Of a stretch of DNA of 24,660 bases, positions 1,869 through 18,373 are shown piece by piece. Numbering within the stretch: the stretch's first letter is position 1; each line of letters begins with the position of its first letter. Position numbers and translations under genes: made by a program. Under the pieces are notes generated by a model. The model searched no databases, was not told the origin of the DNA, and saw only the letters and a program-made list of their open reading frames with translations. This DNA is from a virus (Duplodnaviria > Caudoviricetes), in the IMG/VR virus record IMGVR_UViG_3300012041_000240, positions 1 through 24,660 of that record, one strand, 5' to 3'.

Positions 1869-1881
1869 TGTAATCATTACA
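1869..1881. promoter_or_regulatory. 13-bp palindromic site, copy 2
   Basis: ATGTAATCATTACAT (1868-1882) fills the gap between the endolysin stop and the terminase ATG. Confidence 0.85.
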
Positions 1882-3086
1882 TGGCCTGTCATCTCGCCCC
1901 CTCTCTCCGAGACCTGATGGTCCGGCAATTCCGGGCCGACATCTATAAACGTGTCGGCTTCGTGGAGTTTCCGCCTCAGGCAGCCTTCCGTCTAGCCTCG
2001 GAGGGCTGGGAGCTGACTAATAAAGTCGTGGAGGCTCCTGAGTGGGAGGAGCCCCCCTACGACCCGAAGATTACGGACCCGGCCCACTATCTCATTAAGC
2101 CCAAGCCTGTCCGGCTGCTTGTCCCGTGCTTGCCTGAGGACCCAGACGCCCAGCGGATAGCCGAGACAGACAACTTCGCCAAAGAGGAGTGGCGGCTCGC
2201 GGTTCCCCGAGAATTTAGCTACTTGGACCGCCAAGGGATTCCCGTCGTCAATGCCGGGGTGATCGCCCACAAGGTCAGCCTCTTGGCCAGCTTCAAGATG
2301 GGCAAGTCCCGCAATATTGGTATGTGGGCCTCTGGGTTCGCCTGCCTGCCGGGCGCAACGATTGAGATGGTGGGGCTGGAATACGCCACGTCCCAGCACG
2401 AGTTTGAGTATCTCTGCGAGACACTCCTTAGTGGGACCAACCCTATTATCAAGAAATGGAAGCATCGCTATAACGATGTGCGGGCCGGCCGCATGTATCT
2501 GGAGCTGCTGAACGGTTGTAGCTTCAGTGTGAAAAGCTGGCAGAACAAAGACCTGATGCGGGGTGCCCAGCTCACCACCTACATCTTCAACGAAGTCTAT
2601 CAGCTGCCCGGCCTAGAAGCATACACGGGCCACGCCCAGAACCTGCGTGTGGAGAAGGGCTTTGCCGTGTTCACCTCAACCCCGGATAAGCCCTGGGTCA
2701 AGGTGCTTCATACGATGGGTCACGGGCACAATCCAGACTGGCACTGCGTCTGCGATAACAATGCCTTCGTCAATCCCTTCTCGTTTGACTTGACGGGGCT
2801 GATGGCCGACTTGCCCGACTGGGCTACACTGAGAGAGTTTGCACCGGGGCTCATGGCCATGGCTGAAGCCTCAGGTCTACAGCCGGGGGCGCTCATGAGC
2901 AAAGAGAAGTTTATGATCTCCTGGCTCGGTCGGGTCGGGGGCTTTGTCGGGCGGGTCTACAGCTTCAGTCGGGAGGCCATTACCTGTAATCCCGGCACCC
3001 ATCCGAAAATCTGGAAGCCCAGTGTTGTTACTGCCTGGGAGGACCGTCAGGCGTATCTCCAGGAAGTCCGAGAGGCTGTCCACTAG
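1881..3086 (+). CDS. terL: Terminase large subunit, N-terminal ATPase part
   Basis: Q-motif PPQ, Walker A ASFKMGKS, LMRGAQL, Walker B-like YIFNE, motif III TSTP, linker GRVYSF. Confidence 0.8.
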   Translation: MACHLAPSLRDLMVRQFRADIYKRVGFVEFPPQAAFRLASEGWELTNKVVEAPEWEEPPYDPKITDPAHYLIKPKPVRLLVPCLPEDPDAQRIAETDNFAKEEWRLAVPREFSYLDRQGIPVVNAGVIAHKVSLLASFKMGKSRNIGMWASGFACLPGATIEMVGLEYATSQHEFEYLCETLLSGTNPIIKKWKHRYNDVRAGRMYLELLNGCSFSVKSWQNKDLMRGAQLTTYIFNEVYQLPGLEAYTGHAQNLRVEKGFAVFTSTPDKPWVKVLHTMGHGHNPDWHCVCDNNAFVNPFSFDLTGLMADLPDWATLREFAPGLMAMAEASGLQPGALMSKEKFMISWLGRVGGFVGRVYSFSREAITCNPGTHPKIWKPSVVTAWEDRQAYLQEVREAVH

Positions 3087-3731
3087 ATGCTGACTGCCGA
3101 TAATCTGCGTATCCCGAAATCCTGGGAGATTCTGGCCGGGGCCGATACCGGGACCTATCTCGGCGGAGCTATCTGTGCGATCGACCCTGACTATGAGCTG
3201 TATGTCCTGGAGGAGTTTCCGAACTATCACTATACCGGGGACGGCACGATTGAGCTAACCGGCATGACCGTGAGCGAATGGCTGCTCTGGTTCCGCTCTC
3301 GGATGCACCGCTGGACCGGCCAATCCCGTAACTTTGCCTGGGCCGATGCTAATACGCCATTCAAGACCGAGGTGATTAAGGGCTTCCGGTTCAAGATGAA
3401 TCGCAAGCCCCTGGAACTGCGGACAGAAATCACCCGTGAATACACCCGGAGTGGCCGGCTACATCTTATGCCGTGGCTCAAGGTGATCCCCTATGAAATG
3501 GAAGAAGCCGAGTGGCCCGAGCATGAATCTGTGGGCAGCGGTAAGATGCAGCGACTGAAGAAAAAGGACCATTGCCTTGATGGAGTCGAGCATGTGGCCA
3601 GTCGCCGGCCTCATCCGAAATTCAGGCTCGAAACACCGGGTAAGGCAAAGACCATGCGGGAACAACTCGCCCGCCGGCATGGGATGACGATGAAACCGCC
3701 AGCTCAGGACCCCCATCTCGGCCAGAACTAG
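3087..3731 (+). CDS. terL: Terminase large subunit, C-terminal RNase H-like nuclease part
   Basis: ILAGADTG, LYVLEEF, WADAN, KKDHCLDGVEH; same frame as the ATPase ORF, directly after TAG. Confidence 0.8.
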   Translation: MLTADNLRIPKSWEILAGADTGTYLGGAICAIDPDYELYVLEEFPNYHYTGDGTIELTGMTVSEWLLWFRSRMHRWTGQSRNFAWADANTPFKTEVIKGFRFKMNRKPLELRTEITREYTRSGRLHLMPWLKVIPYEMEEAEWPEHESVGSGKMQRLKKKDHCLDGVEHVASRRPHPKFRLETPGKAKTMREQLARRHGMTMKPPAQDPHLGQN

Positions 3732-4226: not shown

Positions 4227-6578
4227 ATGCTGGATAGGATAGATTCGGACGTAGACGCCTGGAGCCGAGACTGGAAGCGACTCCGCCATCAGAAGCATCG
4301 GCAGCGTGGCGGGGTCGAAGCCGCCATGCTCCTCGACTTCCTTCTGTATGAGGGAGAACATCAGAGCATCCAGGTTCAGAATGCTGTCCTGACCCGTGCC
4401 TTCCGCCACGAACGGGACAAGAATAAGCTCCGGCTCATTGTGCCTCTGGCCCGGCGGGCTGCAGACAAGCGTATTGGTCGGCACTTCTCCATCAATCATC
4501 GCTTCAAGGCGTCCCCAAATACCAAAGACGGCGTGGCCTTTGACCATGCCGATGTCATCTCAGACCAGCTCATCCCGGCGACAGACTTCAAGGCCCAGCA
4601 GGATACGTTACTCTGGGAAATCTACACATGGCTGGTGACGTGCGGCGTCTGCTTTGAGCATTGCGACTGGAAAGAGGCCGTCACCCAGGATGTGATGCCC
4701 AAGTATGACGAGGCCACGGGAGATATCATCTGGAAGGACAGTCTCACGGAGCAGGAAATCCCAGAGCGTGTGCTGGAGCAGCTCGTGCAGTCTGGCCGGG
4801 TTGCGCCCGAGCGGTTCTCCCCCTCGGTTGAAGTCCAGGCCGTGGGCGACTTCGGGGCGGACATCTATGACCCTTTCCGGGTCTTTGTGGACGCCAGCGT
4901 CAAGCAGGTCAAATTCCTTGGCCCCGATCAGGCCATCTATCTGGCCGACATCCGCACGTTCGATTGGATTAAGGCCACGTTTGGCAATAAGGCCACGGCC
5001 AAGCTCACTCCCTCCAAGCAACTGAGTATCATTGAGACGCAGCTGATTGATCGGGGGGTTCCCGTCTCTGGGGTCAACCTCAAAGACCTGTTACCCCTCA
5101 TTCAAGGCTCTCAGGGGAAGGATGACCCGGACAGTTGCATTGTCCTCACCCGCTATCAACCTCAGTCCGAGGAGAATCCCGAGGGCTTACGGTCCTTCTT
5201 CGTGCCGGACCAGGAGGCTCTGGAGAAGGGGGATAACCCCTACCCCGAGGTGCCCGTGGTCGATTACCATTGGTCGGCCCCCGTCAGCTCTATCTGGACC
5301 CGTGGCTTCATGCGGGACCTGCAGAGCATGAGCAAGTTCATCAATAAGCGGTTCTCTCAGCTGGGGGAGGCATCGAATGCCCAGCTCTATGAACTGCTGT
5401 TGACAGGTGGCGACATTTCCAAACGAGACATCCCGACTGACTTCCCCGGCATTGTGGAGGGGGGCCTGAGCGATGAGGGGACGCCCCTTGTCCAGACCGT
5501 GCCCCGAGGCAACATTAGCCCCTTCTTCCCCGAGTCCATTCGCTTGAGTATGGAGACGCTGGACGCCCTCAGCTCCTCCGATCTGTCCAGCGGTAAGAAG
5601 ATGCCGGCCCAGATGCGAGGCCCGCTAGCCCTCCCGCTCTTACAGGAAATTCTGGACTCTGAGGACGGCCCTCGCTACAAGCATCTGGCCGAGCAATTCG
5701 CCCGCGAGAAAATGATGCGAGTCAACCGCATCAAAGCCTTCTATCCACCCATTCGGACTCTCAACTACACGGGCGAGGACATGCGGACGGAAGTCCTGGA
5801 GTTTCATACCGATGAAGTGCTCCGGGCTGGCGTAGACTTCCAAGTCACTGTGGACCCTGGCTCTGTGTTCCCCGAGTCGGCATCTATGCGGGAGGCACGA
5901 GTGAGGGAGCGGATGCAGTGGGCTCCAGGGCTCTACACCAATCCTAGGACCGGCACCATGGATTGGTCGAAGGTGGCGAAGGACCTGAAATACAACGACA
6001 AGCAGCGGGAGTCTACAGAAGTCAGAGGCCGAAAGCTGGCGCGGCAGCTTCTGCAATGGGTCCGTAAGGGGAAGCTCACGGTCCAGGACATGCCCCAGCA
6101 GGGTATGGGACCAGACGGAGCCCCCCTGCTGCCAAAGCCCACGTTGTTCCGAACCGACACAAGTCAGTCCTTCGTGACCTATCCTTTCTGGCCCCATGAC
6201 GCCATGATGGATGAGTATCAGGACGCGATGGAAACAACGGAGTTTCTGGAGGCCAGCCCAACCTACCAGCGGGCACTCCTGACCCTCTTTGACTCTCATC
6301 GAGCTATCCTGGCCCAGATTGATCAGGCCCGGCAGCAATCTGTGGATAACAAGATGGTGCAGTCAGCAATGGCCCAGGCCAGCCAGCAGGCCGCTGCTAT
6401 GGCGGCGTCGGCAGCCGCGGAAGCCGCCATTCAGCAAGTTCAGGCACAGGGGGACCTCGGGGGCAACAACATGGATCAACTGGAGCAGCGGATGCGGCAA
6501 CTCCTGGGTGAATCCCAGGGGGGACAGCCCCAACGGCAACCCCAACGGCGGCCTATCGCTCCCATGCAACCCCAATAG
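4227..6578 (+). CDS. Portal protein (P22-like) with Q/A-rich C-terminal barrel
   Basis: 783 aa between terminase and scaffold; DIYDPFRVFVD, PYPEVPVVDYH, GFMRDLQSMSKFINKRFSQ, QQAAA tail; RBS AGGAG. Confidence 0.8.
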   Translation: MLDRIDSDVDAWSRDWKRLRHQKHRQRGGVEAAMLLDFLLYEGEHQSIQVQNAVLTRAFRHERDKNKLRLIVPLARRAADKRIGRHFSINHRFKASPNTKDGVAFDHADVISDQLIPATDFKAQQDTLLWEIYTWLVTCGVCFEHCDWKEAVTQDVMPKYDEATGDIIWKDSLTEQEIPERVLEQLVQSGRVAPERFSPSVEVQAVGDFGADIYDPFRVFVDASVKQVKFLGPDQAIYLADIRTFDWIKATFGNKATAKLTPSKQLSIIETQLIDRGVPVSGVNLKDLLPLIQGSQGKDDPDSCIVLTRYQPQSEENPEGLRSFFVPDQEALEKGDNPYPEVPVVDYHWSAPVSSIWTRGFMRDLQSMSKFINKRFSQLGEASNAQLYELLLTGGDISKRDIPTDFPGIVEGGLSDEGTPLVQTVPRGNISPFFPESIRLSMETLDALSSSDLSSGKKMPAQMRGPLALPLLQEILDSEDGPRYKHLAEQFAREKMMRVNRIKAFYPPIRTLNYTGEDMRTEVLEFHTDEVLRAGVDFQVTVDPGSVFPESASMREARVRERMQWAPGLYTNPRTGTMDWSKVAKDLKYNDKQRESTEVRGRKLARQLLQWVRKGKLTVQDMPQQGMGPDGAPLLPKPTLFRTDTSQSFVTYPFWPHDAMMDEYQDAMETTEFLEASPTYQRALLTLFDSHRAILAQIDQARQQSVDNKMVQSAMAQASQQAAAMAASAAAEAAIQQVQAQGDLGGNNMDQLEQRMRQLLGESQGGQPQRQPQRRPIAPMQPQ

Positions 6579-6612
6579 AATCAAGGGTTTCTGCCCCAGC
6601 CGGGGATGGGAC

Positions 6613-6641
6613 TTGACATCTCAGCCCCGGATTCTTACAAC
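6613..6641 (+). promoter_or_regulatory. Sigma70-like promoter for scaffold/capsid genes
   Basis: TTGACA (6613-6618), N17, TACAAC (6636-6641). Confidence 0.55.
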
Positions 6642-6677
6642 CAGCAGCCAGAGTCTCAGAGAGGGGACGATTTCACC

Positions 6678-7706
6678 ATGACCAGATCAACCAGCTTTGT
6701 CCGCGACTACTTCAGCCGTCCAGACAGCCTACCGTTTCACCCCGGATGTAATCATTACATGCCGGACTCCCCGATGTATGACAACGATGGGGACGGCGGA
6801 GGCGGTGTTGGGGGAGAAGGTGAAGGGGAGGGCGAAGGCGAAGGTGCGGGTGCCGGTGAGGGTGAAGGCGAAGGGGAGGGCACTGGAGGCGAAGGACAGG
6901 GCGACAACAGCCCCAAGGCCCGGATGGCCAAGGCCCTGGCCCTCAAGTCCGATGATGACTACGTTCGCGTTCCTGGCATCAAAGATCCGGTAAGAGTCGG
7001 GGACCTGAAGCAGGCGTATGGCCTCCGCACCCAGAACGAACAGAACATCAAGGTTATGGGTGCCGTGGCCCAGATTCTCCGTGAGCGGCAGGGTCAGGCC
7101 CCCCAGAAGAGCCGCCAGCAGCAGCAGCAGAGGCAGCAACAGGAACCCCGCCGCCGAGCCTCTGACCAGGACCAGGACCCGTTGGCCCAAATCGAACGCA
7201 TGGACGTGATTGACGGGAAGACCGTCGCGGCCATGTTCCGGGGTCTGCAGGCCCAGCTGGGCAAAGTTCTGCCGACAATGGGCGAGGGCATCAAAGACGT
7301 GCGGACGCGCCTCAGCCATCACGACTCCGCCCGTGACGAGCAGGCGTTCATGGGGGAAGTGAGCAAGGCCATTGACGCCCTGAAGCTCCCGGTTCTTGAC
7401 GGTAAGCGGGTTGAAGGCTCGGAGATTCTGAACGATCTGGCGCGGGATCTGTATCTCTCCTACGCCGACGAAGACCAGCCACGTTTGCTAGGAGAGCCGC
7501 TCCAGAAGCTGGTCAAGGCACGATTCGACGGCCTTCGGAAGATGTTCAAGGCTCTCGACAAGGCCGAGCTGGAATCCGCAAAGCTCAGACAGAAGCAACG
7601 CCTGTTCTCCCGGAAAGGTCAGTCCACGGGGGCCAACGGCAAGGGGCGACTCCTCACCAACCGGGAACTGGCCGACGCCGCGTTTGCAGGGGAAGCAAAC
7701 ACGTAG
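6678..7706 (+). CDS. Capsid scaffolding protein (putative)
   Basis: Between portal and MCP; acidic G/E N-terminus, helical Q-rich body, basic C-terminus; start 6678 chosen from RBS GAGGGG (6759 also possible). Confidence 0.7.
   Translation: MTRSTSFVRDYFSRPDSLPFHPGCNHYMPDSPMYDNDGDGGGGVGGEGEGEGEGEGAGAGEGEGEGEGTGGEGQGDNSPKARMAKALALKSDDDYVRVPGIKDPVRVGDLKQAYGLRTQNEQNIKVMGAVAQILRERQGQAPQKSRQQQQQRQQQEPRRRASDQDQDPLAQIERMDVIDGKTVAAMFRGLQAQLGKVLPTMGEGIKDVRTRLSHHDSARDEQAFMGEVSKAIDALKLPVLDGKRVEGSEILNDLARDLYLSYADEDQPRLLGEPLQKLVKARFDGLRKMFKALDKAELESAKLRQKQRLFSRKGQSTGANGKGRLLTNRELADAAFAGEANT
6747..6759. promoter_or_regulatory. 13-bp palindromic site, copy 4
   Basis: CCGGATGTAATCATTACATGCCGG; overlaps in-frame ATG 6759. 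Confidence 0.85.
6789..6902 (+). repeat. Low-complexity Gly-Glu dipeptide repeat in the scaffold gene
   Basis: GGEGEGEGEGEGAGAGEGEGEGEGTGGEG. Confidence 0.8.
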
Positions 7707-7724: not shown

Positions 7725-7741
7725 CCGACACACACAGGGAG

Positions 7742-7815
7742 ACGAGAGCCGTATGTTGACCTTACTCATGAGCCTCAATCGACGTTGGAGGGTTGGAGCC
7801 CTGGCGCTGGTCGCC
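7742..7815 (+). repeat. 74-bp perfect direct repeat, copy A (MCP 5' end)
   Basis: Identical to 15915-15988 by base-by-base comparison. Confidence 0.95.
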
Positions 7816-9153
7816 CTGTTTCTGCTCCCCAATTTCGCGTTCGCCGTTAGCGTCTCAGACGTGGTGGAGCTGTTCAAATACAGCTACGGCGTAGACAAGA
7901 TGCTGTATCTTGCCTCCGTCGAAACAGTCATCTGGAACCTGCTGAAGCGCCGGAAGAAGACGGTTGGCGGACGCGGCCAGTGGATCATCCCCTACCAGAA
8001 GCAGAATGCTGGCCATATGGTGGGTATGGCCGAGGGCGCGACTCTGACGACCAAGCGGCCCCAGCCGTCCACTGCTGAAGCCACGTTCTCCCTCATCGAA
8101 TTTCAGGCCGTGTGGGATATCACCTGGAAGATGCTGAGGCAGGCGTCACGGGGCAAGGATGCGTTTGAGACGGCCATGAACTTCATGGACAACAGCATCA
8201 AGCGCCGCGTGTTCCGCGTTATCAACTCGCAAGTGTGCAGCTTCACCGGACTGGGTGAGCTGGCCATTCTGCCGGATGCTGACAACGACACAACCATTAC
8301 CGTCAACTCCTTGCCCTTCATGGATCAGGGGATGTCGGTGGACCTGATCGATGCCAGCGACAACACAACTGAGCTGGTGGCCGACCGGAGCATCAGTTCT
8401 CTCGACGTGGAAGCTCGCACTGTGACCATTTCGGGCGCGGCAGCAGCAGGCACGGCGGCTGGCGACTACTTCGTGACATCTGAACAGGTCACGGGCGGCG
8501 TCTCCTATTCCCTCCACGGGCTCGGAGCCTGGATCAGCAACGTCAACCCACCGGCCACAGTCGGCAACATTGGAGGCATCAACCGCTCGACCGCCGGCAA
8601 TGAGTTTTACAAAGGCAACGTCAAGGCCAATGGCGGGACGCTGCGCGCCTTCACCGAGGACTTGCTTATCTCCGGCGAGAACCTGATGCGGGAGCGGGGC
8701 GGAGTGCAACCAAGCCGCTACGCCGCCAACAGCAACATCATGGCCCGATACGCCGGGGACCTGATCCGGGACCGTTACTTTGCCTACAACAAAATCCGAC
8801 CCTTGGGCGCGGACGGCGACAAGCCGGGATTCGGCCGTGAGGGCATGGACCTGGAAGGCAAGGAAGACGGCAAGGGCACGACCCCCTATACGCTCTCCGG
8901 GAAGCCGTTCCACTGCGAGCCGTATCTCCGGGCAAACCGTGTCATCGGCTGGAACGATGATCACTTCTGGATTGGCCACGACGGCATCGAAGTGCCGACG
9001 CCGCTCTCGGAAATCTTCGATGAGATGGTGCCCTACTTCAGCATGAAGGCCACGCCGTCCGCCAGCTTCGACGTGTGGCACTACTGGGAGGCTCAGGTGC
9101 TGAGCGACAACCCCCAGGCCGGTATCCAGTTTCAGGACGTGGCCGAGAGCTAA
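7753..9153 (+). CDS. Major capsid protein (HK97 fold, putative) with signal-peptide-like N-terminus
   Basis: Position after scaffold; GMAEGATL, AVWDITWKML, SLHGLGAWI, IGGINRST, FTEDLL, PFHCEPY are capsid-like motifs; leader RRWRVGALALVALFLLPNFAFA. Confidence 0.8.
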   Translation: MLTLLMSLNRRWRVGALALVALFLLPNFAFAVSVSDVVELFKYSYGVDKMLYLASVETVIWNLLKRRKKTVGGRGQWIIPYQKQNAGHMVGMAEGATLTTKRPQPSTAEATFSLIEFQAVWDITWKMLRQASRGKDAFETAMNFMDNSIKRRVFRVINSQVCSFTGLGELAILPDADNDTTITVNSLPFMDQGMSVDLIDASDNTTELVADRSISSLDVEARTVTISGAAAAGTAAGDYFVTSEQVTGGVSYSLHGLGAWISNVNPPATVGNIGGINRSTAGNEFYKGNVKANGGTLRAFTEDLLISGENLMRERGGVQPSRYAANSNIMARYAGDLIRDRYFAYNKIRPLGADGDKPGFGREGMDLEGKEDGKGTTPYTLSGKPFHCEPYLRANRVIGWNDDHFWIGHDGIEVPTPLSEIFDEMVPYFSMKATPSASFDVWHYWEAQVLSDNPQAGIQFQDVAES

Positions 9154-9186
9154 GTCCACTCGTTAACCTGAATCTGGGAGGCATGT

Positions 9187-9360
9187 ATGACCCGTAAACG
9201 ACGTGATGCAGGGTCCGAGGATGAAGTCCTGGACTACCCCTACGACGGCCCGGATGACCCGATCCGCCCCCGAGGGGTGCCGTATCAGCCCCCATTGCCG
9301 GGAGAATCGGCAGAGGACTACGCGGCTCGCACGGCGACAGATGAGGTGGAAGGGGAGTAA
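9187..9360 (+). CDS. Small acidic protein, 57 aa, not in the ORF track
   Basis: RBS GGGAGG; MTRKRRDAGSEDEVLDYPYDGPDDPIRPRGVPYQPPLPGESAEDYAARTATDEVEGE*. Confidence 0.7.
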   Translation: MTRKRRDAGSEDEVLDYPYDGPDDPIRPRGVPYQPPLPGESAEDYAARTATDEVEGE

Positions 9361-9367
9361 TCCCCTT
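9350..9367 (+). terminator. Hairpin, possible weak terminator or processing site
   Basis: AAGGGGA-GTAA-TCCCCTT with GNRA loop and only a short T run. Confidence 0.4.
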
Positions 9368-9390
9368 TGCCCTCTACGGTCTAGCTTCCC

Positions 9391-9403
9391 TGTAATCATT
9401 ACA
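9391..9403. promoter_or_regulatory. 13-bp palindromic site, copy 6
   Basis: TGTAATCATTACA then CGGAGAG RBS of 9414. Confidence 0.85.
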
Positions 9404-9413
9404 CGGAGAGACG

Positions 9414-9836
9414 ATGGACGCGAAAACGCCGCTAGTCATTACGAAGTCAATTGACATCAACCCGGCGACGGCCCTCCCGGTTGACCATATCCTTTTCATC
9501 TGCCCAGAAGGGGCGGAGTATGAGGTTGTGGAGGTGAAGGAGGCTCACACCGTGGCCGGCAGCGATGGTGGAGCCGTCACCGGGGACATCAAGAAGCATT
9601 CGGCCGGGACCGCTCCAGATGCAGGAACTTCGGTGCTGTCCTCAACCTTCAACCTCAAATCGACCGCGAACACGCCCGTTAGCAAGAATACGGCGTCCGG
9701 GTTGGCAGCCCAGTCGGTAAGGCGGCTCACTGGAGGCCAAATGCTCTCCCAGGACTTCACGGGGACACTGACGGCCCTGGCGGGATGCTGCGTTACTGTT
9801 GTTCTCAAGATGCTTCGGCCTCCGATTTATCGGTAG
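9414..9836 (+). CDS. Putative capsid decoration protein (beta-rich)
   Basis: 140 aa, T/S/A/G-rich, downstream of the MCP. Confidence 0.55.
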   Translation: MDAKTPLVITKSIDINPATALPVDHILFICPEGAEYEVVEVKEAHTVAGSDGGAVTGDIKKHSAGTAPDAGTSVLSSTFNLKSTANTPVSKNTASGLAAQSVRRLTGGQMLSQDFTGTLTALAGCCVTVVLKMLRPPIYR

Positions 9837-9880
9837 GTTGGCCACGCGCGACTCGGAATCCTTAACTAAGGAGCTGACGA

Positions 9881-10816
9881 ATGGGACTCATGGAAGGCAT
9901 CAGTAAGCGGTATGCGCGAAATGCGCTGTCCGCAATGAACCCGGAACTGGTTGTTGGTCTGCGAGGTTTGCGGTCCAAGACCATCTTCGTTGACAGCAAC
10001 GCGGCATTGGGGGGCAACGGAGCCTCTTGGGATTCAGCTGTTCAGAGTCTGGCGACAGCAATCGGCTTAGCCGTTGCCGATGACCTGATTCTGGTTGCAC
10101 CCCTGCACGTCGAAACCATTGTGGCTGCGGCCGGCGTCGTGTTGAACAAGGCGGGCGTGACTGTCATTGGTCTTGGGAACGGCAATCGCCGCCCCCAGAT
10201 CAACTTCACGACCGTGGTCGGTGCTGACCTGGACATCACGGGCGCCGGAACGACCATGATCAATTTCCGCTTTACTGGCGGATTTGATGCGCTGACCGGC
10301 CCAGTCAATCTCGCGGCGGCCGATATCACGCTGATCGATATCGTGACCGAGGATGTGACAGGGCAGGCGACAGACTTCATTGTCACCACGGCCGCCTGTG
10401 ACCGACTGCGAATCAGTGGCTGGGAGCACCGGGGAGCAGCGGCGGCAGGTGCTGACACGGCCCTGTCTATGGTGGGCGGGGATGACGCGGTGGTCGAGGA
10501 CTTCAACATCTATGGCAACTTCGCGGTTGCCGGGATCGAGAATGTCACCACTGCCCAGAATCGCTTGCGGATTGGTGGGGGAACCCGACCAAGCTCTATC
10601 TGGACCGAGAACGCAGCTGATATCGCCATTACCCTGGTGGCGACGACGACGGGCCTGATCATGGGTCCCATCGATATCATGCTGCAAGACAACGCGGCCA
10701 ACATCACGGAGGCCCTGGTTGGCGTAGCAGTCTCTTTCTTCCAGCCCCTCCGGCTCGTCAATCTGGCCGGCGAGTCCAGCATGGAATCGAACATCACAGC
10801 TTCCACCGATGCCTAG
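9881..10816 (+). CDS. Right-handed beta-helix (pectin-lyase-like) virion protein
   Basis: TIFVDSN..GNGASWDSAVQSLATAI..DDLILVAPLH..GVTVIGLGNG cap motif; RBS TAAGGAG. Confidence 0.65.
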   Translation: MGLMEGISKRYARNALSAMNPELVVGLRGLRSKTIFVDSNAALGGNGASWDSAVQSLATAIGLAVADDLILVAPLHVETIVAAAGVVLNKAGVTVIGLGNGNRRPQINFTTVVGADLDITGAGTTMINFRFTGGFDALTGPVNLAAADITLIDIVTEDVTGQATDFIVTTAACDRLRISGWEHRGAAAAGADTALSMVGGDDAVVEDFNIYGNFAVAGIENVTTAQNRLRIGGGTRPSSIWTENAADIAITLVATTTGLIMGPIDIMLQDNAANITEALVGVAVSFFQPLRLVNLAGESSMESNITASTDA

Positions 10817-10836
10817 GGAGGCCTCAGCGGCGACAC

Positions 10837-10849
10837 TGTAATCATTACA
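10837..10849. promoter_or_regulatory. 13-bp palindromic site, copy 7
   Basis: TGTAATCATTACA, intergenic, abutting a GC hairpin. Confidence 0.85.
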
Positions 10850-10876
10850 TGGGCCGGGATTTAACCCCCGGCCCAT
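10849..10876. terminator. 10-bp stem hairpin, possible terminator lacking a U-tract
   Basis: ATGGGCCGGG-atttaacc-CCCGGCCCAT. Confidence 0.45.
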
Positions 10877-10907
10877 CGCATCTAGACGAGAGAGAGAGGA
10901 GACTCCA

Positions 10908-11792
10908 ATGGTTCGTGAACGCAAGGGGAGGAAGCCGACCAACCCCCTCGACCTGCCCGATGCCCGATTCCTGGGCACGGCCTATTCCAGCGAAGAGTGC
11001 GCGTTTCTGCTGGAGCACTTAGGCGAGCCTTCTGTTGTGGCAATGCCCCCCGACGACGAGTTGCCGATTGGCGTCAACGAGGATGCGGTTGGCCCCCTGC
11101 TCGACCGCACGTATCAGCTGGAGCAATACCAGCAGGCTATGCGGGATCGGACGGGCACCGAAGACCTGACCGTCTGGTGTGGCTTCGACAAGCTCAGGGA
11201 TGTCCTGTCCGAAACGCTTGACTGGCGGGCTCAGGTGCAGGAGCTGAAGCGGCGGACTCGGGGCTCTAGCTCAGAGATTCAACGGGCTGCGAATGCCCCG
11301 AGCCTCCACATGTGGGACCCCACGACCGATATCCCTTACTTGGGCGGTATTGGCGCGGATGCTGATATCGTTCAGACAGGCCTGAATGAGCGGGGGGAAC
11401 GGGTGGAGTTGTTCACGGAGCTGAAGAATACCGGCCCCGGCACCCTCAAGTCTCTGGCCGGCGTGGCGAGGTTTGTCCGAAGTCGGACCCGCGCCGAGCA
11501 GACGGCCAAGCAGCTGGACATTCCCGAGGACTTGCTTTATGACGAGGGCGAGCACTATGCCAGCGTAGCCTGCCCCATCTGCAAGAAATCCGAGCCGTAT
11601 GAAGTGAGCAAGGCCACGACCAAGCGCAAGGCCGTAACGGCGATCATGCGCCACCTGATTGAGGAGAACGTCTCCCAGGTGGACAAGCATCGGCTGCTCT
11701 ACCAGCGGATGAAGTCCGGCAAGTCCGGCAACCAATCCAAGCGGGTGCAGGCTCCATCACGTTCGACGGAACAGGAAACGGTGGAGGCGTAA
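10908..11792 (+). CDS. Hypothetical protein with C-terminal CxxC...H...H zinc-finger-like motif
   Basis: CPICKK...IMRHLIEENVSQVDKH; RBS GAGGAG. Confidence 0.65.
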   Translation: MVRERKGRKPTNPLDLPDARFLGTAYSSEECAFLLEHLGEPSVVAMPPDDELPIGVNEDAVGPLLDRTYQLEQYQQAMRDRTGTEDLTVWCGFDKLRDVLSETLDWRAQVQELKRRTRGSSSEIQRAANAPSLHMWDPTTDIPYLGGIGADADIVQTGLNERGERVELFTELKNTGPGTLKSLAGVARFVRSRTRAEQTAKQLDIPEDLLYDEGEHYASVACPICKKSEPYEVSKATTKRKAVTAIMRHLIEENVSQVDKHRLLYQRMKSGKSGNQSKRVQAPSRSTEQETVEA

Positions 11793-11796
11793 GTCC

Positions 11797-12486
11797 ATGC
11801 CCCGCTGGAGACGCCGGCAACCCCATGAACGCGAGACGTTCGGGATTGCTCTGAATCAGCCCACGGGACCGAGGCCGGGGCCAGAGATTCTGCCGTGGTA
11901 TTGGCATCCTGACCGGGAGGGGGCGCTGTCCCCTCCCGAATGGTTTGCCAAACGACTCCGAGAGATTGACCCAGACCTTTGCGTAGTCTTCTCGCCTGTC
12001 CATGAGCGATACATCCTCTGGGTCAAGAATCCCCGAATTGGTCATGACCCCGACCCTGAGGTGCGGGACACTATTCAGATGCTGGGCTGTGTCGGCTGGC
12101 AGCTTCTGATGATCTGGGAACATGCAGAGACACATGTTCCCATCCCATTGAGTGAGCTGATGTTCCATAACATCTATCTCATTTCGGGAGAGCGGTATCC
12201 GAACGCCCGCGCTTACTTCGACCGTATTCAGGAGGACATTCGCCGGCAGATCGAGTCACGGGATAAGACCTTTCAGGGGGAACGGCAGGATTTCCAGAAC
12301 GAGTATCGGAAGGGAACGCAGGTGATCTCCTCAGCAGGATCAGGGAGTAAGTCTGCTCTTAATGACTCGGTAGTCCCGAGCCGGGGAGAGGCCAACTGGC
12401 GGGCTGACCGGCGGAAGTGGAATCTGCCAGCTGAGATGCTGCAGGCCGAAAGGGACCAGAAAGAGAAAGACTTCTATACCCCATGA
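11797..12486 (+). CDS. Hypothetical phage protein
   Basis: 229 aa, tightly packed, ATGA overlap with the next gene. Confidence 0.65.
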   Translation: MPRWRRRQPHERETFGIALNQPTGPRPGPEILPWYWHPDREGALSPPEWFAKRLREIDPDLCVVFSPVHERYILWVKNPRIGHDPDPEVRDTIQMLGCVGWQLLMIWEHAETHVPIPLSELMFHNIYLISGERYPNARAYFDRIQEDIRRQIESRDKTFQGERQDFQNEYRKGTQVISSAGSGSKSALNDSVVPSRGEANWRADRRKWNLPAEMLQAERDQKEKDFYTP

Positions 12487-13172
12487 CTCTGCAGACCATT
12501 TTTGATAGGTGCATGCTCGGGGATAACGAGCTGGACCTGATTGCAGGCGGCGATGATGTTGTGCGCGGGCTGACGGCTGTCAACATGGTGCAGGATTGGT
12601 GGGAGGCTGTTGCAGCAGCTAAAGCGGACTTTCTGGCGACTCATTCGACATTCACTACGACTGCCGATGTCGAAACCACAACATGGCCCTCGACATTGAA
12701 GCGTCTGGATGGGGACCCCTGGCTGATTTCTTCAGTCACTGACAGGTCCGTCCGACAGATTGCTCGTGTCCAGGGTGTCGGGGGTCATGTGGTGGGGATG
12801 GCGTGGCCCTACTCGGAGCTGTCAGAGTCTGTGGCTGAGGGCTCGGGTTCACCTCGGGAATATTGGGCGACAGGACCTGGGGGGCTGTTCTATTGGACTC
12901 CCATCCCGGATGCCATCTATACCGTCCGGGCGTATGGGCTCTGGGCCAAGGCCGACTATACGGCAGCAGCGAATACGTTCGCCTATCCAGATGAAGTGGC
13001 ATTAGTTATCCCGACCTTCGCGGCGAAACTTATGCGAGTGGGGCTTAATCGTAACCTGGATGGGATTCAAGGGGAGGCCGAAGCTGCCTTCTCCGTTGTG
13101 GTGAAAGCGCTCAAGCGATTTACGCGGCAGGGGGCAGATTCTCTGCAATACAGTGAAGCACACGACACGTAA
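12483..13172 (+). CDS. Head-tail adaptor / tail tubular protein A-like (putative)
   Basis: MTLQTIFDRC start, GSPREYW, FYWTPIPDAIYTVRAYG, YPDEVALVI; size and position typical. Confidence 0.6.
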   Translation: MTLQTIFDRCMLGDNELDLIAGGDDVVRGLTAVNMVQDWWEAVAAAKADFLATHSTFTTTADVETTTWPSTLKRLDGDPWLISSVTDRSVRQIARVQGVGGHVVGMAWPYSELSESVAEGSGSPREYWATGPGGLFYWTPIPDAIYTVRAYGLWAKADYTAAANTFAYPDEVALVIPTFAAKLMRVGLNRNLDGIQGEAEAAFSVVVKALKRFTRQGADSLQYSEAHDT

Positions 13173-13187
13173 CGAGAGAGGACTGAC

Positions 13188-13577
13188 ATGATTGCGATGA
13201 TGGCGCTACTTGGACTCGACAGCCTCTTTGGCTCCATCTCTGACGGGCTGCTTCAGCTGGCCCTCCCGGCTCTGGCGACAGCGGCGGCTACTCTGCTGGT
13301 GGGCCTCCTGAAGAGGGGGTTTGCCTACATGAAGATTCAGATCACAGCTGAGCAGGAAGCCGCGCTACGTGAGAAGGTGCGAAATGCCATTCTCCGAATC
13401 GAGGAGCTGTCCAAGCAGGACCCCAAGACCCCTATGAAGGGAGAGGACAAGCTGGATAGCGCGATCGTGGGGGTCATGAACGAAACGGGGGTAGGTGCCA
13501 TGGAGGCCGAGAAGCTCATCCACGAAGAATTGCCAAAGGCTCGGGTGATGTGGCCGCCCAAAATCGGCGCCCGCTAA
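13188..13577 (+). CDS. Holin-like membrane protein (LL-H type)
   Basis: N-terminal hydrophobic segment, then VRNAILRIEE, KGEDKLDSA, AEKLIHEEL. Confidence 0.6.
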   Translation: MIAMMALLGLDSLFGSISDGLLQLALPALATAAATLLVGLLKRGFAYMKIQITAEQEAALREKVRNAILRIEELSKQDPKTPMKGEDKLDSAIVGVMNETGVGAMEAEKLIHEELPKARVMWPPKIGAR

Positions 13578-13584
13578 CGCCAGA

Positions 13585-13597
13585 TGTAATCATTACA
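13585..13597. promoter_or_regulatory. 13-bp palindromic site, copy 8
   Basis: TGTAATCATTACA then CGGAG RBS of 13611. Confidence 0.85.
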
Positions 13598-13610
13598 CGG
13601 AGCACAGCTT

Positions 13611-13970
13611 ATGCGATGCGTAGTAGACGGTCTGGTATTGGCGGGCACGCAGAACCCGCTGTTTTCCGCACTTGTGGCCGCTGATTCCAAGTCGGCTGTT
13701 GTCGGTCCAGGTCGAAACCATGCGATCACGAAGCATGTGTGGTATCTGGAATGGGGAGTTAGTGTGAGTCAGGGAGAGGCCGTGATTGAGACGGCCGGAC
13801 ATCCTGACTACTCGGGAGCCTGGGCACCTTTGGGCACCGTGCCCTTCTCTGCCGCCGGACAGGTTGACCGTTTCAGCTACGATGGAATGCTCAATTCCAC
13901 GCGGGTCCGTATGCTCCAGGCCGCCGACGGCGCCGGGGTCACAGTTCGGTTCTCGGGGCATAGGGGGTAG
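13611..13970 (+). CDS. Small beta-sandwich virion protein (putative)
   Basis: 119 aa, alternating beta pattern, AWAPLG..TRVRM. Confidence 0.55.
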   Translation: MRCVVDGLVLAGTQNPLFSALVAADSKSAVVGPGRNHAITKHVWYLEWGVSVSQGEAVIETAGHPDYSGAWAPLGTVPFSAAGQVDRFSYDGMLNSTRVRMLQAADGAGVTVRFSGHRG

Positions 13971-13972
13971 CG

Positions 13973-15589
13973 ATGAAGCGTATTATCGGACTGATCCTTA
14001 TCGGATATCTGCTGTGTGCTGTTACAGCTACAGCCCAAACCATTGTTGCTCCCTCTTATGCCCGTAGCACTGGATCATTAGCAGGGAGTGGGTCTGGTTC
14101 GCTCCAGATGACTACGGAGCGGATGGGAACAGCGACGGTCCAGATTACTGGCACATGGACTGGCACAGTCACATTTGAAGTCAGCAGCACTGGATCGACA
14201 TGGGTCACTCGGAGTCTTACGCCTCCCGGAACAACGACGGCGACAACGACGGCAACAGCTAATGGTGCATGGGAGGGGTCTGTTGCAGGTTGGCGCTATT
14301 TTCGTGTTCGGGTGTCAACCCCAGGCACTGGCACTCTTAATCTGGCGCTCAATGCTGTCAGCACTGGTGGGGGCGGAGGCGGAGGAGGCGGGGGGGGAGC
14401 GGGCACCAGCGACACGCTGGAAGCGACCCAACTAAATGTGCTGGCCGCCGTTGACGGCATCGAAGCGGCCTTGGCTGGTCTTGATTCTGGGACGGCCGTC
14501 ACGGGAACGGTCACGGTGACAGACGGAGCTGGAGCCCTGAACGTCATCATTGATTCGTCAGCCACGCTGACCGTGACGGATGGCGCCGGTGCATTGAACG
14601 TGATCATCGACTCCAGCGCCACCCTCACCGTTACTGACGGCGCGGGGGCTCTCAACGTCATCTGCGACTCAGGTTGTTCTGGCGGGGCGCAATACACCGA
14701 AGATGCGGCGGCGGCGGCGGACCCTGTTGGGAACGCCATGATCGTGGTCAGGGCGGATACGCCTGCGGGTATTGCATCGACCAATGGCGACAATGTGGCG
14801 TTGCGCGGGACCGACTATGGCGCGGTCTACGTGACGCTCTTGACCAGCGCAGGGGCGATCCCTTCGCTGGCAACAGACCTGACGGTCGGAACGGCGTTCG
14901 GGACGACTGGTCCTGGCGTCCTAACGTCCTACAAAGAGTTTGATGGCGCCGCGTTGCCTACAACGACGAACGTTGGCACCGAGGAAGAAGCCAATCCCCT
15001 TGCAACCACGCTTCAGGGCGTTGCGTATGCGTTCCTCGTCAACGAAGACGGGAGCAAGCAACTTGGGAAGCTGGAAGACGATGCGCATGCGTCGGCGGAT
15101 TACGGAGTGCCTGTCTGGGCACGCCGGATTGACGCGGCGGCGGTGTCGGGCGGAACCGATGCGGATTACTCGACGTTCAACGTCGATGTGCTTGGGTTGC
15201 TCTGGACGCGTTCGCTGGACCCATGTTCGGGTGTGGCGAAGACATACATTCCGATCAATATTTCGACCGCGACGACGACGGAGCTGACGGCCGCGCTGGC
15301 GGGCGCCTCAACGAACTACTACGTGTGCTCGGTCAACCTCGTCGCGGCGGCGGCGCAAACGATCGCCATTGTCTACGACGACTCGGACGGCTGCGGGTCG
15401 GTCACGGCAGGGATGGCGGGCGGCACGTCTGCGGCGACGGGCTGGAGCTTCGCGGCGAACGGCGGTATTGCCCTCGGGAACGGTTCGGCAACGGTCCTGA
15501 AAACGGGCGCCACGAATACTGTGATCTGTGCCGTGACCGGACAGGCCGCGCAAATATCAGGAACGATGGCTGTGGTGGCGGCACCATGA
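13973..15589 (+). CDS. Exported fibre/adhesin-like protein with signal peptide
   Basis: MKRIIGLILIGYLLCAVTATA|Q leader, beta-sandwich domain, poly-Gly linker, 19-aa repeats, Cys-containing C-terminal domain. Confidence 0.7.
   Translation: MKRIIGLILIGYLLCAVTATAQTIVAPSYARSTGSLAGSGSGSLQMTTERMGTATVQITGTWTGTVTFEVSSTGSTWVTRSLTPPGTTTATTTATANGAWEGSVAGWRYFRVRVSTPGTGTLNLALNAVSTGGGGGGGGGGGAGTSDTLEATQLNVLAAVDGIEAALAGLDSGTAVTGTVTVTDGAGALNVIIDSSATLTVTDGAGALNVIIDSSATLTVTDGAGALNVICDSGCSGGAQYTEDAAAAADPVGNAMIVVRADTPAGIASTNGDNVALRGTDYGAVYVTLLTSAGAIPSLATDLTVGTAFGTTGPGVLTSYKEFDGAALPTTTNVGTEEEANPLATTLQGVAYAFLVNEDGSKQLGKLEDDAHASADYGVPVWARRIDAAAVSGGTDADYSTFNVDVLGLLWTRSLDPCSGVAKTYIPINISTATTTELTAALAGASTNYYVCSVNLVAAAAQTIAIVYDDSDGCGSVTAGMAGGTSAATGWSFAANGGIALGNGSATVLKTGATNTVICAVTGQAAQISGTMAVVAAP
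14513..14671 (+). repeat. ~2.8 tandem copies of a 57-bp (19-aa) unit
   Basis: TVTDGAGALNVIIDSSATL twice, then TVTDGAGALNVICDS. Confidence 0.9.
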
Positions 15590-15855
15590 GGATCATCAGC
15601 CTGCTCGCGTTGCTTCTGCTCTCCGGGTGTGCGGCGCATTACGTAGACCCATCTAAGCCCGTTAAGAACCTCTCGGCCTTTCAGCAGTCATCTTCGACGG
15701 CGCTGATCGCGGGTCAGTGCGTCCAGGTGGTGATGTTCAAGAACGGGCGAACCGTGCGCCTCCCGCTTGATGCACAGATTTGCCGTGATGCCGAAACCGG
15801 CCTTGCTGTGGAGCAGGCGATGCGCAACACCCAAAAACCGGACGGCGTAAAGTGA
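15586..15855 (+). CDS. Lipoprotein, 89 aa
   Basis: MRIISLLALLLLSG|C lipobox; ATGA overlap with the upstream stop; true start lies inside track ORF 15223..15855. Confidence 0.75.
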   Translation: MRIISLLALLLLSGCAAHYVDPSKPVKNLSAFQQSSSTALIAGQCVQVVMFKNGRTVRLPLDAQICRDAETGLAVEQAMRNTQKPDGVK

Positions 15856-15869
15856 CGACGCGGAAGATG

Positions 15870-15895
15870 GCCAGGGGTCCCCGTCCAGACGCTTC
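15870..15895 (-). repeat. Inverted copy of 12698-12723 (adaptor gene), 25/26 identical
   Basis: Reverse complement GAAGCGTCTGGACGGGGACCCCTGGC versus GAAGCGTCTGGATGGGGACCCCTGGC. Confidence 0.9.
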
Positions 15896-15914
15896 GGCAG
15901 TGGACGGCTGGGGC
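15891..15914 (-). repeat. Inverted copy of 8058-8081 (MCP gene), 23/24 identical
   Basis: Reverse complement GCCCCAGCCGTCCACTGCCGAAGC versus GCCCCAGCCGTCCACTGCTGAAGC. Confidence 0.9.
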
Positions 15915-15988
15915 ACGAGAGCCGTATGTTGACCTTACTCATGAGCCTCAATCGACGTTGGAGGGTTGGAGCCCTGGCGCTGGTCGCC
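15915..15988 (+). repeat. 74-bp perfect direct repeat, copy B
   Basis: Identical to 7742-7815; supplies the start region and first 21 codons of 15926. Confidence 0.95.
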
Positions 15989-17647
15989 ATCCTCGCGCTC
16001 GTCCTGGCAGTGCTCGTTACCGTCACAGCCGATGCGCAGATCCGGTTGCGGTCTAGTGGGAGCGGGGGCGGGGATCGTGCGCTCCTGACGGAAGCGGATT
16101 TCACCTACTCCGGCTACTACGAGATGGGGACCGGGGACAATGCGAACTACGCGCAAGGGTTCACGGCTCGCACGGTCAGCGGCACCCTGCGATTCGCGAT
16201 TGGCGTCGGGCTCATCAGCAGCTCCATGTATCTGCGGGAGTTCACGCTTCCCGCGTCGTTCGGGCAAAACGTCACGTGGCGCACATGGATGAACACAGAC
16301 CCCTACCTGCTTGGGGCCGGGTCTCCGCATATCGGACTGTGGTTCAATGAAAACGTCTCAGGGAGCGACGATGAGCTCTGGGTGGACCACGCCTGTGATT
16401 ATCCGCAGGCAGGGTGTGACCAGGACGCGATCACGGTGCTGCGGACGTGGACCGTCAGCGATGCCGATGTCCTGTCGAACCTGCAAGGGTATTGGGGATA
16501 CAACACGGTCGGGATGCGCGCGACCTACGGCGGCGTGATGAAGGTGCCGACGTGGTTCAAGAACACCTACAGCACGCAGGAATACCTGACCGGGTGGGGC
16601 GGCTATACGAGCCTCTGTTCCGGCAGGACTCCGTCGCTCGGGCCATTCTTTTTGTTTTTCCCGCGTCCGCACGGTGTCTACACCGAATTGTCGTGGGATG
16701 TCACAACGGGCGGGATTCCGACGACGGATTACACGATCGCCGCCGATCATCGAGGGAGTCACTGCAACGGAGCCGACTGGTATAGCGGGAGTTACGCCAG
16801 TCGCACGGTTGAGCGCGGCATTCGTGCCACCTTGACCCACGCGAACTATTTCGACAGTGGGGACCCCCGCTCGAACCCCGACCAAATCACCAGAAACGTC
16901 GATGTGTCCGGCACGACCGTCACGTATGACGATGTGCCCGGCGCCGCATTCGACTTCTCCAACAAAGGCTGGTGGGCTGGCTATTCTGGCACCGTGGGCG
17001 GAATGACCGAGAACGGGACAGCGTATCAGGTCAACATCAACGCGACACCGTACACAGTCGCGAGTGTTGATAGCGCCACGCAGTTGACCCTCACGGCCTC
17101 GGCGGGAACGATCTCGAACGCTACGCTGGTCGGTCCTCTCGGGTCTCTGGCTCCGAAAATTGGGGTGTTGGATTCCGGGCTCTGGGACACGTCTGAGCCA
17201 ACGGCTGCAGGGGCTCCCTCTGATCCAGACGGGTGGGCGCGCTGGAACTCCCACGACACCTACAACAACACCTGTCAATGGATCGACAACGATGCGGGCA
17301 CTCGAACGAAGCACGGCTTCGTGTGCATCGCGTCGTTGCAGAACGGCAAAACGTGGTACTGCGGCAGTTCGGGCTGCTCAGAGTCGAAGGAATACGAGAT
17401 TCACGTGTTCAACCCGACGACCATCGCGCAGGGGTATGCCGGTTCGATTTCGGCGTGGAAAGTGCGACCGACGTATGCGTGGAGCATCAAGAGTCTCCTT
17501 GCGGGGATTACTGACAATGGTGGCGATCAGTCAGGGGAGCGCATCATCGGCGCCAAGTTTGTGAATAACAAACTGTATGTCTTCTGGGGGCAGGGCGGCG
17601 GAGGCGGCGGTGCGCGACTCTTTGAGTTTGCAGTGGCGGGGAGCTAA
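15926..17647 (+). CDS. Exported Cys-containing beta-rich (possibly propeller) protein with MCP-derived signal peptide
   Basis: Leader ...LALVAILALVLAVLVTVTADA|Q; many W/Y/G/T; inserted segment YTVASVDSATQLTLTASAG resembling phage fibre modules. Confidence 0.7.
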   Translation: MLTLLMSLNRRWRVGALALVAILALVLAVLVTVTADAQIRLRSSGSGGGDRALLTEADFTYSGYYEMGTGDNANYAQGFTARTVSGTLRFAIGVGLISSSMYLREFTLPASFGQNVTWRTWMNTDPYLLGAGSPHIGLWFNENVSGSDDELWVDHACDYPQAGCDQDAITVLRTWTVSDADVLSNLQGYWGYNTVGMRATYGGVMKVPTWFKNTYSTQEYLTGWGGYTSLCSGRTPSLGPFFLFFPRPHGVYTELSWDVTTGGIPTTDYTIAADHRGSHCNGADWYSGSYASRTVERGIRATLTHANYFDSGDPRSNPDQITRNVDVSGTTVTYDDVPGAAFDFSNKGWWAGYSGTVGGMTENGTAYQVNINATPYTVASVDSATQLTLTASAGTISNATLVGPLGSLAPKIGVLDSGLWDTSEPTAAGAPSDPDGWARWNSHDTYNNTCQWIDNDAGTRTKHGFVCIASLQNGKTWYCGSSGCSESKEYEIHVFNPTTIAQGYAGSISAWKVRPTYAWSIKSLLAGITDNGGDQSGERIIGAKFVNNKLYVFWGQGGGGGGARLFEFAVAGS

Positions 17648-17650
17648 CCC

Positions 17651-18373
17651 ATGACACGTCTGTTGTTCGCGCTTATCCTGCTACTCAGCGCGTCCGTTGT
17701 TCAGGCAGCGCCTACCTATCGGTCATCGTCGTCGCACGTAGAGTGCGGCTCGTGTAGCTCGCTATCTACGCTGTCGTATACCGTCACCGCTGGTGACGAT
17801 CTATTCGTGGCGATTCAAGTCGCGCACGATAGCACCCCATCGATATCATCGGTCACATCAGATCTGGATGGTGGCCTTACTCAAATTGGGACCAATTCTC
17901 CTCCCGGTGTTTCGGGGCGTATCGCGGCGCTCTATCGCAAAGCGGCGGCCACGGCGGGGACGCACACGATCACGATCACGACATCTGCCAGCATCAATCT
18001 GATCACGGGTGATGCCTTTGGCTATTCCAGTGTCGGCGGCCTGGGAACGCCAGCCGTCGCCAATGATACCGGCAACTCTCCAACCATCTCTGTAAACAAC
18101 GCATCCGGCGATACGATGATCATGATCATCATCGGCACGCAGGTCGATACGAATCGCGGCCCAGGGGCCACGGGCACCGAACAGTTTGAGCACGTGGGCG
18201 CAAACGGGGTGACTTACCTGTGGGACAGCACGACGGCTGGCACGCCTACGACAATCACCGGCGATGCTTCGATGACTCCATGGGCAGCCGTTGCTGTATC
18301 GCTAACTGCATCTGGCGGGGGTGGGCCGACCTGCACCGGCGGTCTGCTGTTGCGTGGAGCCGGTGGATGCTAA
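17651..18373 (+). CDS. Exported beta-sandwich protein with signal peptide
   Basis: MTRLLFALILLLSASVVQA|A; AGDDLFVAI, AALYRK, AGTHTITIT; tail GGGGPTCTGGLLLRGAGGC. Confidence 0.7.
   Translation: MTRLLFALILLLSASVVQAAPTYRSSSSHVECGSCSSLSTLSYTVTAGDDLFVAIQVAHDSTPSISSVTSDLDGGLTQIGTNSPPGVSGRIAALYRKAAATAGTHTITITTSASINLITGDAFGYSSVGGLGTPAVANDTGNSPTISVNNASGDTMIMIIIGTQVDTNRGPGATGTEQFEHVGANGVTYLWDSTTAGTPTTITGDASMTPWAAVAVSLTASGGGGPTCTGGLLLRGAGGC

Follow-up and report, generated by a model that had tools for sequence, protein, structure and literature searches.

The major capsid protein encoded in the viral DNA analyzed here, a stretch of 24,660 nucleotides (the window), begins with a leader of 31 residues (positions 7753 to 7845) arranged like a bacterial export signal, with a predicted cut before Val32. 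The leader appears to be a conserved add-on to an otherwise ordinary HK97-fold capsid protein, and its features suggest a membrane step in the building of the head.

The capsid gene, its head module and its leader

The open reading frame (ORF) at 7753 to 9153 (plus strand) encodes an HK97-fold major capsid protein within a podovirus-like head module. The first-pass annotation had already called it a capsid protein, and this is borne out by a match to PHROG 14242, major head protein (E value of 1.3e-12, residues 42 to 343), by the fold and by the gene context. An AlphaFold model built from 94 sequences (pLDDT of 84.2, pTM of 0.78) was compared with 48,161 solved chains using VIA-align. The best match was the capsid of cyanophage A-1(L) (PDB 7f38; Z of 19.6, rmsd of 3.5 over 284 residues), followed among others by 6j3q (Z of 17.5) and HK97 itself (1ohg, Z of 14.7), so that the fold check proposed in that annotation also came out in its favor. 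All 50 of the matches listed were phage capsids, HK97 or encapsulins, while phmmer against PDB sequences returned a single row at chance level. The nearest named Atlas cluster was SU10_MCP, on 11% of its members. The predicted mature protein (7846 to 9153, plus strand, 435 amino acids) has no membrane helix (best 19-residue hydropathy of at most 1.7), and cysteine content is similar in leader-bearing and leaderless capsids (1.7 versus 1.9). In the structural alignment, residue 56 of the model falls on residue 26 of the 7f38 chain, an offset equal to the leader length, and the leader itself is modeled as a helix at residues 10 to 24.

The gene order is kept in relatives: a split terminase, portal, putative scaffold, capsid, a homologue of the SU10-type adaptor and a nozzle-like gene. 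The ORF thus sits in a terminase/portal/scaffold head module and is not an encapsulin, the scaffold being assigned by position only, and the phage is podovirus-like. The large terminase is encoded by two plus-strand ORFs (1881 to 3086 and 3087 to 3731); it is split here and in several relatives and is a single fused ORF, matching the PHROG 2 terminase, in L059 and L132. The portal (4227 to 6578, plus strand) is 37 to 49% identical to its relatives, which match PHROG 156 portal, with the Pfam P22_portal match below the cut-off. The putative scaffolding protein (6606 to 7706, plus strand), conserved upstream of the capsid gene, was recognized from position and composition; its likely start is at 6678 (Shine-Dalgarno [SD] energy of −8.2), and hydropathy from 6606 is 0.01. 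The podovirus-type head-tail adaptor lies at 12483 to 13172 (plus strand), with homologues in L106 and L124 matching Pfam SU10_adaptor. Portal, scaffold, both terminase ORFs, adaptor and nozzle all lack a hydrophobic, signal-like start. In 50,697 phage records, tblastn with the capsid, portal and nozzle proteins matched no cultured relative, and a GTDB scan gave one 1-kb fragment and distant leaderless capsids only.

The leader, scored with our own scripts (Kyte-Doolittle hydropathy, charge and motif counts), has four parts, all on the plus strand. A hydrophobic 8-mer (M1 to L8, 7753 to 7776) precedes the basic n-region NRRWR (N9 to R13, 7777 to 7791), an h-region of 12 uncharged residues (V14 to L25, 7792 to 7827; best 11-residue mean of 2.85) and a c-region (7828 to 7845) with Pro26 at −6 and Ala29-Phe30-Ala31, the predicted cut falling between 7845 and 7846. 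The codons at the junction with the body are GCC|GTT, so the junction offers no start codon, just as had been noted at first. The ribosome-binding region (AGGGAG then GAGAG, 7736 to 7748, plus strand) gives an anti-SD duplex of −8.2 kcal/mol at ATG 7753 against +0.7 and +0.4 at GTG 7861 and 7864, calculated with an anti-SD motif of the E. coli type. Translation from one of these two GTG codons had been named beforehand as a finding that would count against the leader; neither has a ribosome site. Because the strong site lies at ATG 7753, the 31-residue leader is very likely translated from there. A single contig from run X1 covers 7742 to 14957 with zero differences and places leader and capsid body on one piece, a check of the assembly only, as X1 is possibly the source sample.

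A 13-bp palindrome, TGTAAT(C/G)ATTACA, occurs 11 times in the window (at 96, 1869, 3733, 6747, 7712, 9391, 10837, 13585, 20050, 23022 and 24119), mostly close to gene starts; one copy precedes the capsid ATG by 41 bp. The 11-bp core of the palindrome recurs in the close relatives L105, L106, L107, L149 and L150 and is absent from all 14 loci checked at greater distance, and it is likely a subclade-specific operator or promoter element.

Conservation, duplication and loss of the leader

A search for capsid homologues gave 289 proteins, and we analyzed the best 120 of them, query included. The junction was placed nine residues ahead of a conserved downstream motif, not by searching for Ala. Among these best 120 of 289, a leader of 21 to 37 extra residues is present in 74, persisting down to about 43% identity, and absent from 46. 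In 45 of the 46 leaderless proteins there is exactly one Met before the junction, and the predicted cut coincides with this start Met. The signal-peptide-type layout first described from the window alone, with its basic n-region, h-region, Pro and A-F-A site, is confirmed, and the presence of a leader of this kind in 74 of the 120 proteins speaks against chance. Among these same 74 leaders from the best 120 of 289, Ala occupies −1 in all, with Ala at −3 in 61, a small residue or Val at −3 in 69 and Pro at −6 in 44; net charge ahead of the h-region is at least +1 in 73, and the best 11-residue hydropathy is at least 2.42 in every one (mean of 3.13). For the 68 leaders of at least 30 residues in this set, the first Lys or Arg stands at position 7 or later in 61, and positions 2 to 8 contain at least four hydrophobic residues, again in 61 of 68. 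The mature protein starts acidic (net −2 over its first 30 residues). The n/h/c layout and the Ala-X-Ala site are those predicted for a Sec signal peptide cut by signal peptidase I, with an atypical hydrophobic 8-mer ahead of the n-region.

Other classes of leader were rejected on the same 74 leaders from the best 120 of 289. The Tat motif S/T-R-R-x-F/L was found in none (any RR in 14). There is no lipobox Cys as in lipoprotein (signal peptidase II) signals, +1 being Val in 55, Ala in 16 and Ile in 3. A leader of the Prp type (80alpha), cut F|A, does not fit −1 being Ala in 74 of 74.

In six close homologues, leader identity was 52 to 65% versus 70 to 84% for the body, and the leader usually diverges faster than the body while keeping its signal-like properties. 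Third-position changes predominate in three of four leader pairs compared. A leader ATG with SD energies of −5.9 to −8.4 was present in 9/9 leader-bearing loci tested; one of them, L050, also carries a junction GTG, whose ribosome site is weak. Leaderless loci have a start codon at the junction in 104 of 105 cases, 103 of them with SD of −4 or lower, most of these loci belonging to one redundant clade. The window itself (L104), L118, L122 and L127 were excluded from both counts. Atypical capsid extensions occur in the same clade: that of L122 (8740 to 8820) is non-hydrophobic, while those of L127 (6084 to 6197) and P0166 are longer and end in Gly.

The leader might instead be an artefact of annotation or assembly, a chance extension or misjoin ahead of a downstream start. 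The duplication of its DNA at 15915 to 15988, beside a patchwork of short inverted copies, speaks for such an origin. Against it stand the 74 leader-bearing proteins among the best 120 of 289, from many independent contigs, the SD signal solely at the leader ATG, the lead of third-position changes in three of four pairs and the X1 contig spanning leader and body. The artefact reading is largely refuted, and we consider it hardly credible.

The duplicate itself is an exact 74-bp copy of 7742 to 7815 (15915 to 15988, plus strand, 100% identical) that supplies the start and first 21 residues of ORF 15926. The first-pass annotation had taken it as support for real targeting activity. As an exact DNA duplicate, it provides no independent support for targeting; moreover, none of five homologues of the ORF 15926 protein has a signal-like start (read by eye), and its 3′ junction (15988) is unbridged, X1 contigs leaving 15945 to 16218 uncovered. 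Beyond the copied part, ORF 15926 has a hydrophobic stretch of its own ending Ala-Asp-Ala, and its 573-residue protein is present in both JGI and ENA. The region from 15870 to 15988 is a patchwork of an inverted 26-bp copy of 12698 to 12723, an inverted 24-bp copy of 8058 to 8081 and the direct copy of 7742 to 7815. The two inverted copies overlap by 5 bases and both lie inside an X1 contig. The patchwork looks like the result of serial template switching, and it could be a source of antisense RNA to two late genes.

To look at the history of the leader, we ran a profile search that added 149 capsid representatives, of which none of the 109 with at least 380 residues has a hydrophobic start. 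A tree made with FastTree only (124 rows, L122 left out) confines the leader to one clade of 100 rows with support of 100, 78 with it and 22 without, and the subclade of the query has it in 33/33 rows. The distribution requires 12 changes, 11 of them forced by strong branches; the simplest history is one gain and about 11 losses. Recombinational swapping of 5′ ends would give the same pattern, and some losses known only from protein records, such as P0079, may be miscalled starts. Three leaderless sisters were verified at the DNA level, with mature parts 88% (L113 versus P0050), 81% (L111 versus P0061) and 76% (L116 versus P0044) identical to those of leader-bearing relatives. At such identities, the mature protein needs no different pathway, and the repeated loss, overlooked in the first-pass annotation, sets a limit on how far the assembly pathway can depend on the leader.

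This repeated loss could point to a dispensable regulatory or chaperone-binding tag like that of 80alpha, whose only effect may be on how fast capsid protein is supplied. Mutants of 80alpha whose capsid protein is pre-cleaved or cannot be cleaved are viable (PMC5744158). However, presence in 78/100 clade rows and 33/33 subclade rows and the invariant Ala at −1 indicate strong selection where the leader is present. We regard such a tag as quite improbable; it also overlaps our best explanation (see below), the benefit being the main difference.

Possible routes through the membrane

The reading we lean to, with rather less than even confidence, is that the capsid precursor engages Sec, is cut after Ala31 by host signal peptidase I and returns to the cytoplasm for assembly. 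The leader would carry the new chain to the host Sec machinery, and cleavage after Ala31 is predicted to occur at the membrane, probably by signal peptidase I. The enzyme follows a −3/−1 rule for its cleavage sites and its active site faces the periplasm, as stated in a review (PMC9360617), and the model therefore requires aborted translocation: the mature chain would slip back into the cytoplasm and assemble into the head together with portal, scaffold and terminase, none of which has a leader. A wholly different assembly pathway is unlikely, because the head must be built with partners from the cytoplasm and near-identical sister proteins lack the leader. The benefit might be that precursors stay at the membrane and cannot assemble before they are cut. 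The additional hydrophobic 8-mer, which resembles extended autotransporter signal peptides, may slow translocation, although this is a guess. Cleavage followed by return has precedents in thylakoid Tat substrates (PMC2171186) and in HBV p22 (PMC9300162); no bacterial Sec example of aborted translocation was found in the literature searched. The same review states that backsliding in Sec is prevented by channel closure (PMC9360617).

The strongly hydrophobic h-region and the acidic mature start would suit complete export at least as well, and true export, with the capsid protein crossing wholly or partly into the periplasm, is a lesser but real possibility. A periplasmic pool could join heads across the inner membrane or after its opening, or it could serve a second function, as a decoy or by hiding from cytoplasmic capsid sensors. 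Besides the textbook signal layout and the acidic start, export is favored by four plus-strand ORFs of the tail module (13973 to 18373) with signal-like starts, namely 13973, 15586 (lipoprotein-like), 15926 and 17651 (N-terminal hydropathy of 2.8 to 3.4, SD of −4.7 to −10.6). Their first Lys or Arg is at position 2 or 3, unlike in the capsid leader. ORF 17651 matches PHROG 553, minor tail protein, and of two homologues, a signal is present in one and missing from the other, which lies on a 745-bp contig. A crude scan of the genes that follow the capsid gene found signal-like starts in 5 of 12 loci of the leader clade versus 3 of 41 others, those three amounting to one lipoprotein, in a scan that misses known cases and compares related loci. 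Also within the tail module is an FkbM-type methyltransferase gene (18370 to 19209, minus strand) that overlaps the 5′ end of an ORF at 19050 to 19748 (plus strand); this ORF has a signal-like stretch ending Ala-Phe-Ala-Gln without a clear start codon with a ribosome site.

Also in favor of export, a protein resembling PMT_2 protein mannosyltransferases (Atlas 0.97, PMT_2 family on 23% of members) is encoded in L108 and L109, two genes downstream of the capsid. PMT_2 protein mannosyltransferases act outside the cytoplasm. At L109:6062-7084 and L108:3532-4542, it is a membrane protein of 7 to 8 helices, behind a small signal-bearing protein and after a leader-bearing capsid gene. Yet this gene is in those two loci only. 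The co-occurrence of the leader with other signal-like starts is weak, with no other downstream signal in L050, L002 and L127, and two such genes occur elsewhere in G003, which is complete and leaderless. Export is also opposed by the absence of a leader from portal, scaffold, terminase, adaptor and nozzle, by the leaderless sisters at 76 to 88% identity and by packaging, which requires ATP and DNA. A broader scheme, which we consider doubtful, is that this clade routes the capsid and several surface proteins via Sec into the periplasm, with subunits maturing outside the cytoplasm before or during head filling and possibly glycosylated in some members.

The leader could also act as a membrane tether or internal propeptide, removed by a different protease specific for Ala that works on the cytoplasmic face of the membrane or inside it, either a host rhomboid-like enzyme or a phage gene product. 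This would avoid the topology problem, and the extra hydrophobic 8-mer is not standard in signal peptides. Nevertheless, a basic n-region predicts insertion with the C terminus out by the positive-inside rule, the −3/−1/−6 pattern is the one specific to signal peptidase I and the sole credible multi-helix membrane gene found was the mannosyltransferase-like one. T4 proheads, assembled on the inner membrane (PMC3185693), offer a parallel in favor of a tether. Six-frame searches of five records for the S26, rhomboid, S78 and Rce1-like families (PF01694, PF10502 and PF02517 among the profiles used) found none in any record, the leader-bearing records being 32 to 83% complete, which speaks, if only suggestively, against a tether cut by a phage protease. 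We judge the tether reading unlikely.

Pfam scans of 25 ORFs in the window and 92 of its relatives likewise showed no protease. The statement in the first-pass annotation that no prohead protease is evident thus holds, with S78 in none of five records and the leader-clade records incomplete. The complete genome of the leaderless G003 has no S78 match either, so the absence carries little weight. With no phage protease match in the incomplete leader-clade genomes, it is suggestive that the cutting enzyme would come from the host. In the close relative G001, whose own capsid leader falls past the contig end, a signal-bearing beta-helix protein is encoded among replication genes (L149:8023-9402, minus strand).

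Scaffolds of the non-marine clade have short hydrophobic or amphipathic starts (L109:2959, L002:3143, L050:6073, L125:2072, L127:5028 and L117:9056) that end in an F/L-x-P-D/E-G motif, ahead of a Gly-rich run, while those of the marine clade lack such starts. The L109 scaffold has D-E-R-G then E-V-V-I, a prepilin-like arrangement. Such motifs are possibly further host-peptidase sites.

Comparison with known systems

In the accepted view, the heads of tailed phages form in the cytoplasm. If the leader works as a signal-peptidase-I-type signal, either Sec cuts a substrate and hands it back, or shell subunits exit the cytoplasm, and, to the extent of our searches, either outcome would be a first among tailed phages. 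The clade is a good test bed, with natural sister capsids with and without the leader at 76 to 88% identity.

The HK97 gp5 delta domain and the T4 gp23 propeptide are also N-terminal pieces removed in head maturation; they are cut by phage prohead proteases and are not signal-like. Unlike HK97 and T4, our phage has a separate scaffold gene and no S78 protease was found in five records. T4 heads do start at the membrane (PMC3185693). Similar in fold are the capsids of cyanophage A-1(L) (7f38, the best match, at 14% identity) and of SU10-type podoviruses; judged by the alignment offset, the solved 7f38 chain has no comparable leader. The capsid of Staphylococcus phage 80alpha is an HK97-fold protein with a short N-terminal leader that is cut by a host protease, Prp, and is not strictly needed, and the 80alpha scaffold also has a leader cut by Prp; however, this enzyme is soluble and cleaves F|A behind an L27-like motif of 13 to 14 residues (PMC5744158). 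Here, the leader is 31 residues long and of membrane type, with an Ala-X-Ala site, and the scaffold has none. The f1/M13 procoat is also a major coat protein with a leader, one that signal peptidase of the host removes at the inner membrane, as is predicted here, but it is a short membrane helix extruded around single-stranded DNA (PMC3185693), in contrast to an HK97 fold whose mature part has no membrane helix and which sits in a portal-terminase module. In HBV precore p25/p22 (PMC9300162) and thylakoid Tat (PMC2171186), a trans-side peptidase cuts and the mature chain can return, although these are eukaryotic ER or Tat systems. The HBV capsid protein is made from a separate start, whereas here the junction has no start codon.

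Capsid leaders cut by a host enzyme (80alpha) and coat proteins with signal peptides (f1) are already known. In the literature searched, mainly open-access, no tailed-phage major capsid protein is described as having a signal peptide, and the predicted signal-peptidase-I-type leader on an HK97 capsid appears to be new as far as searches reach. To the systems above, this case adds the absence of a visible phage protease, a rooted pattern of gain and loss and an exact register with leaderless relatives.
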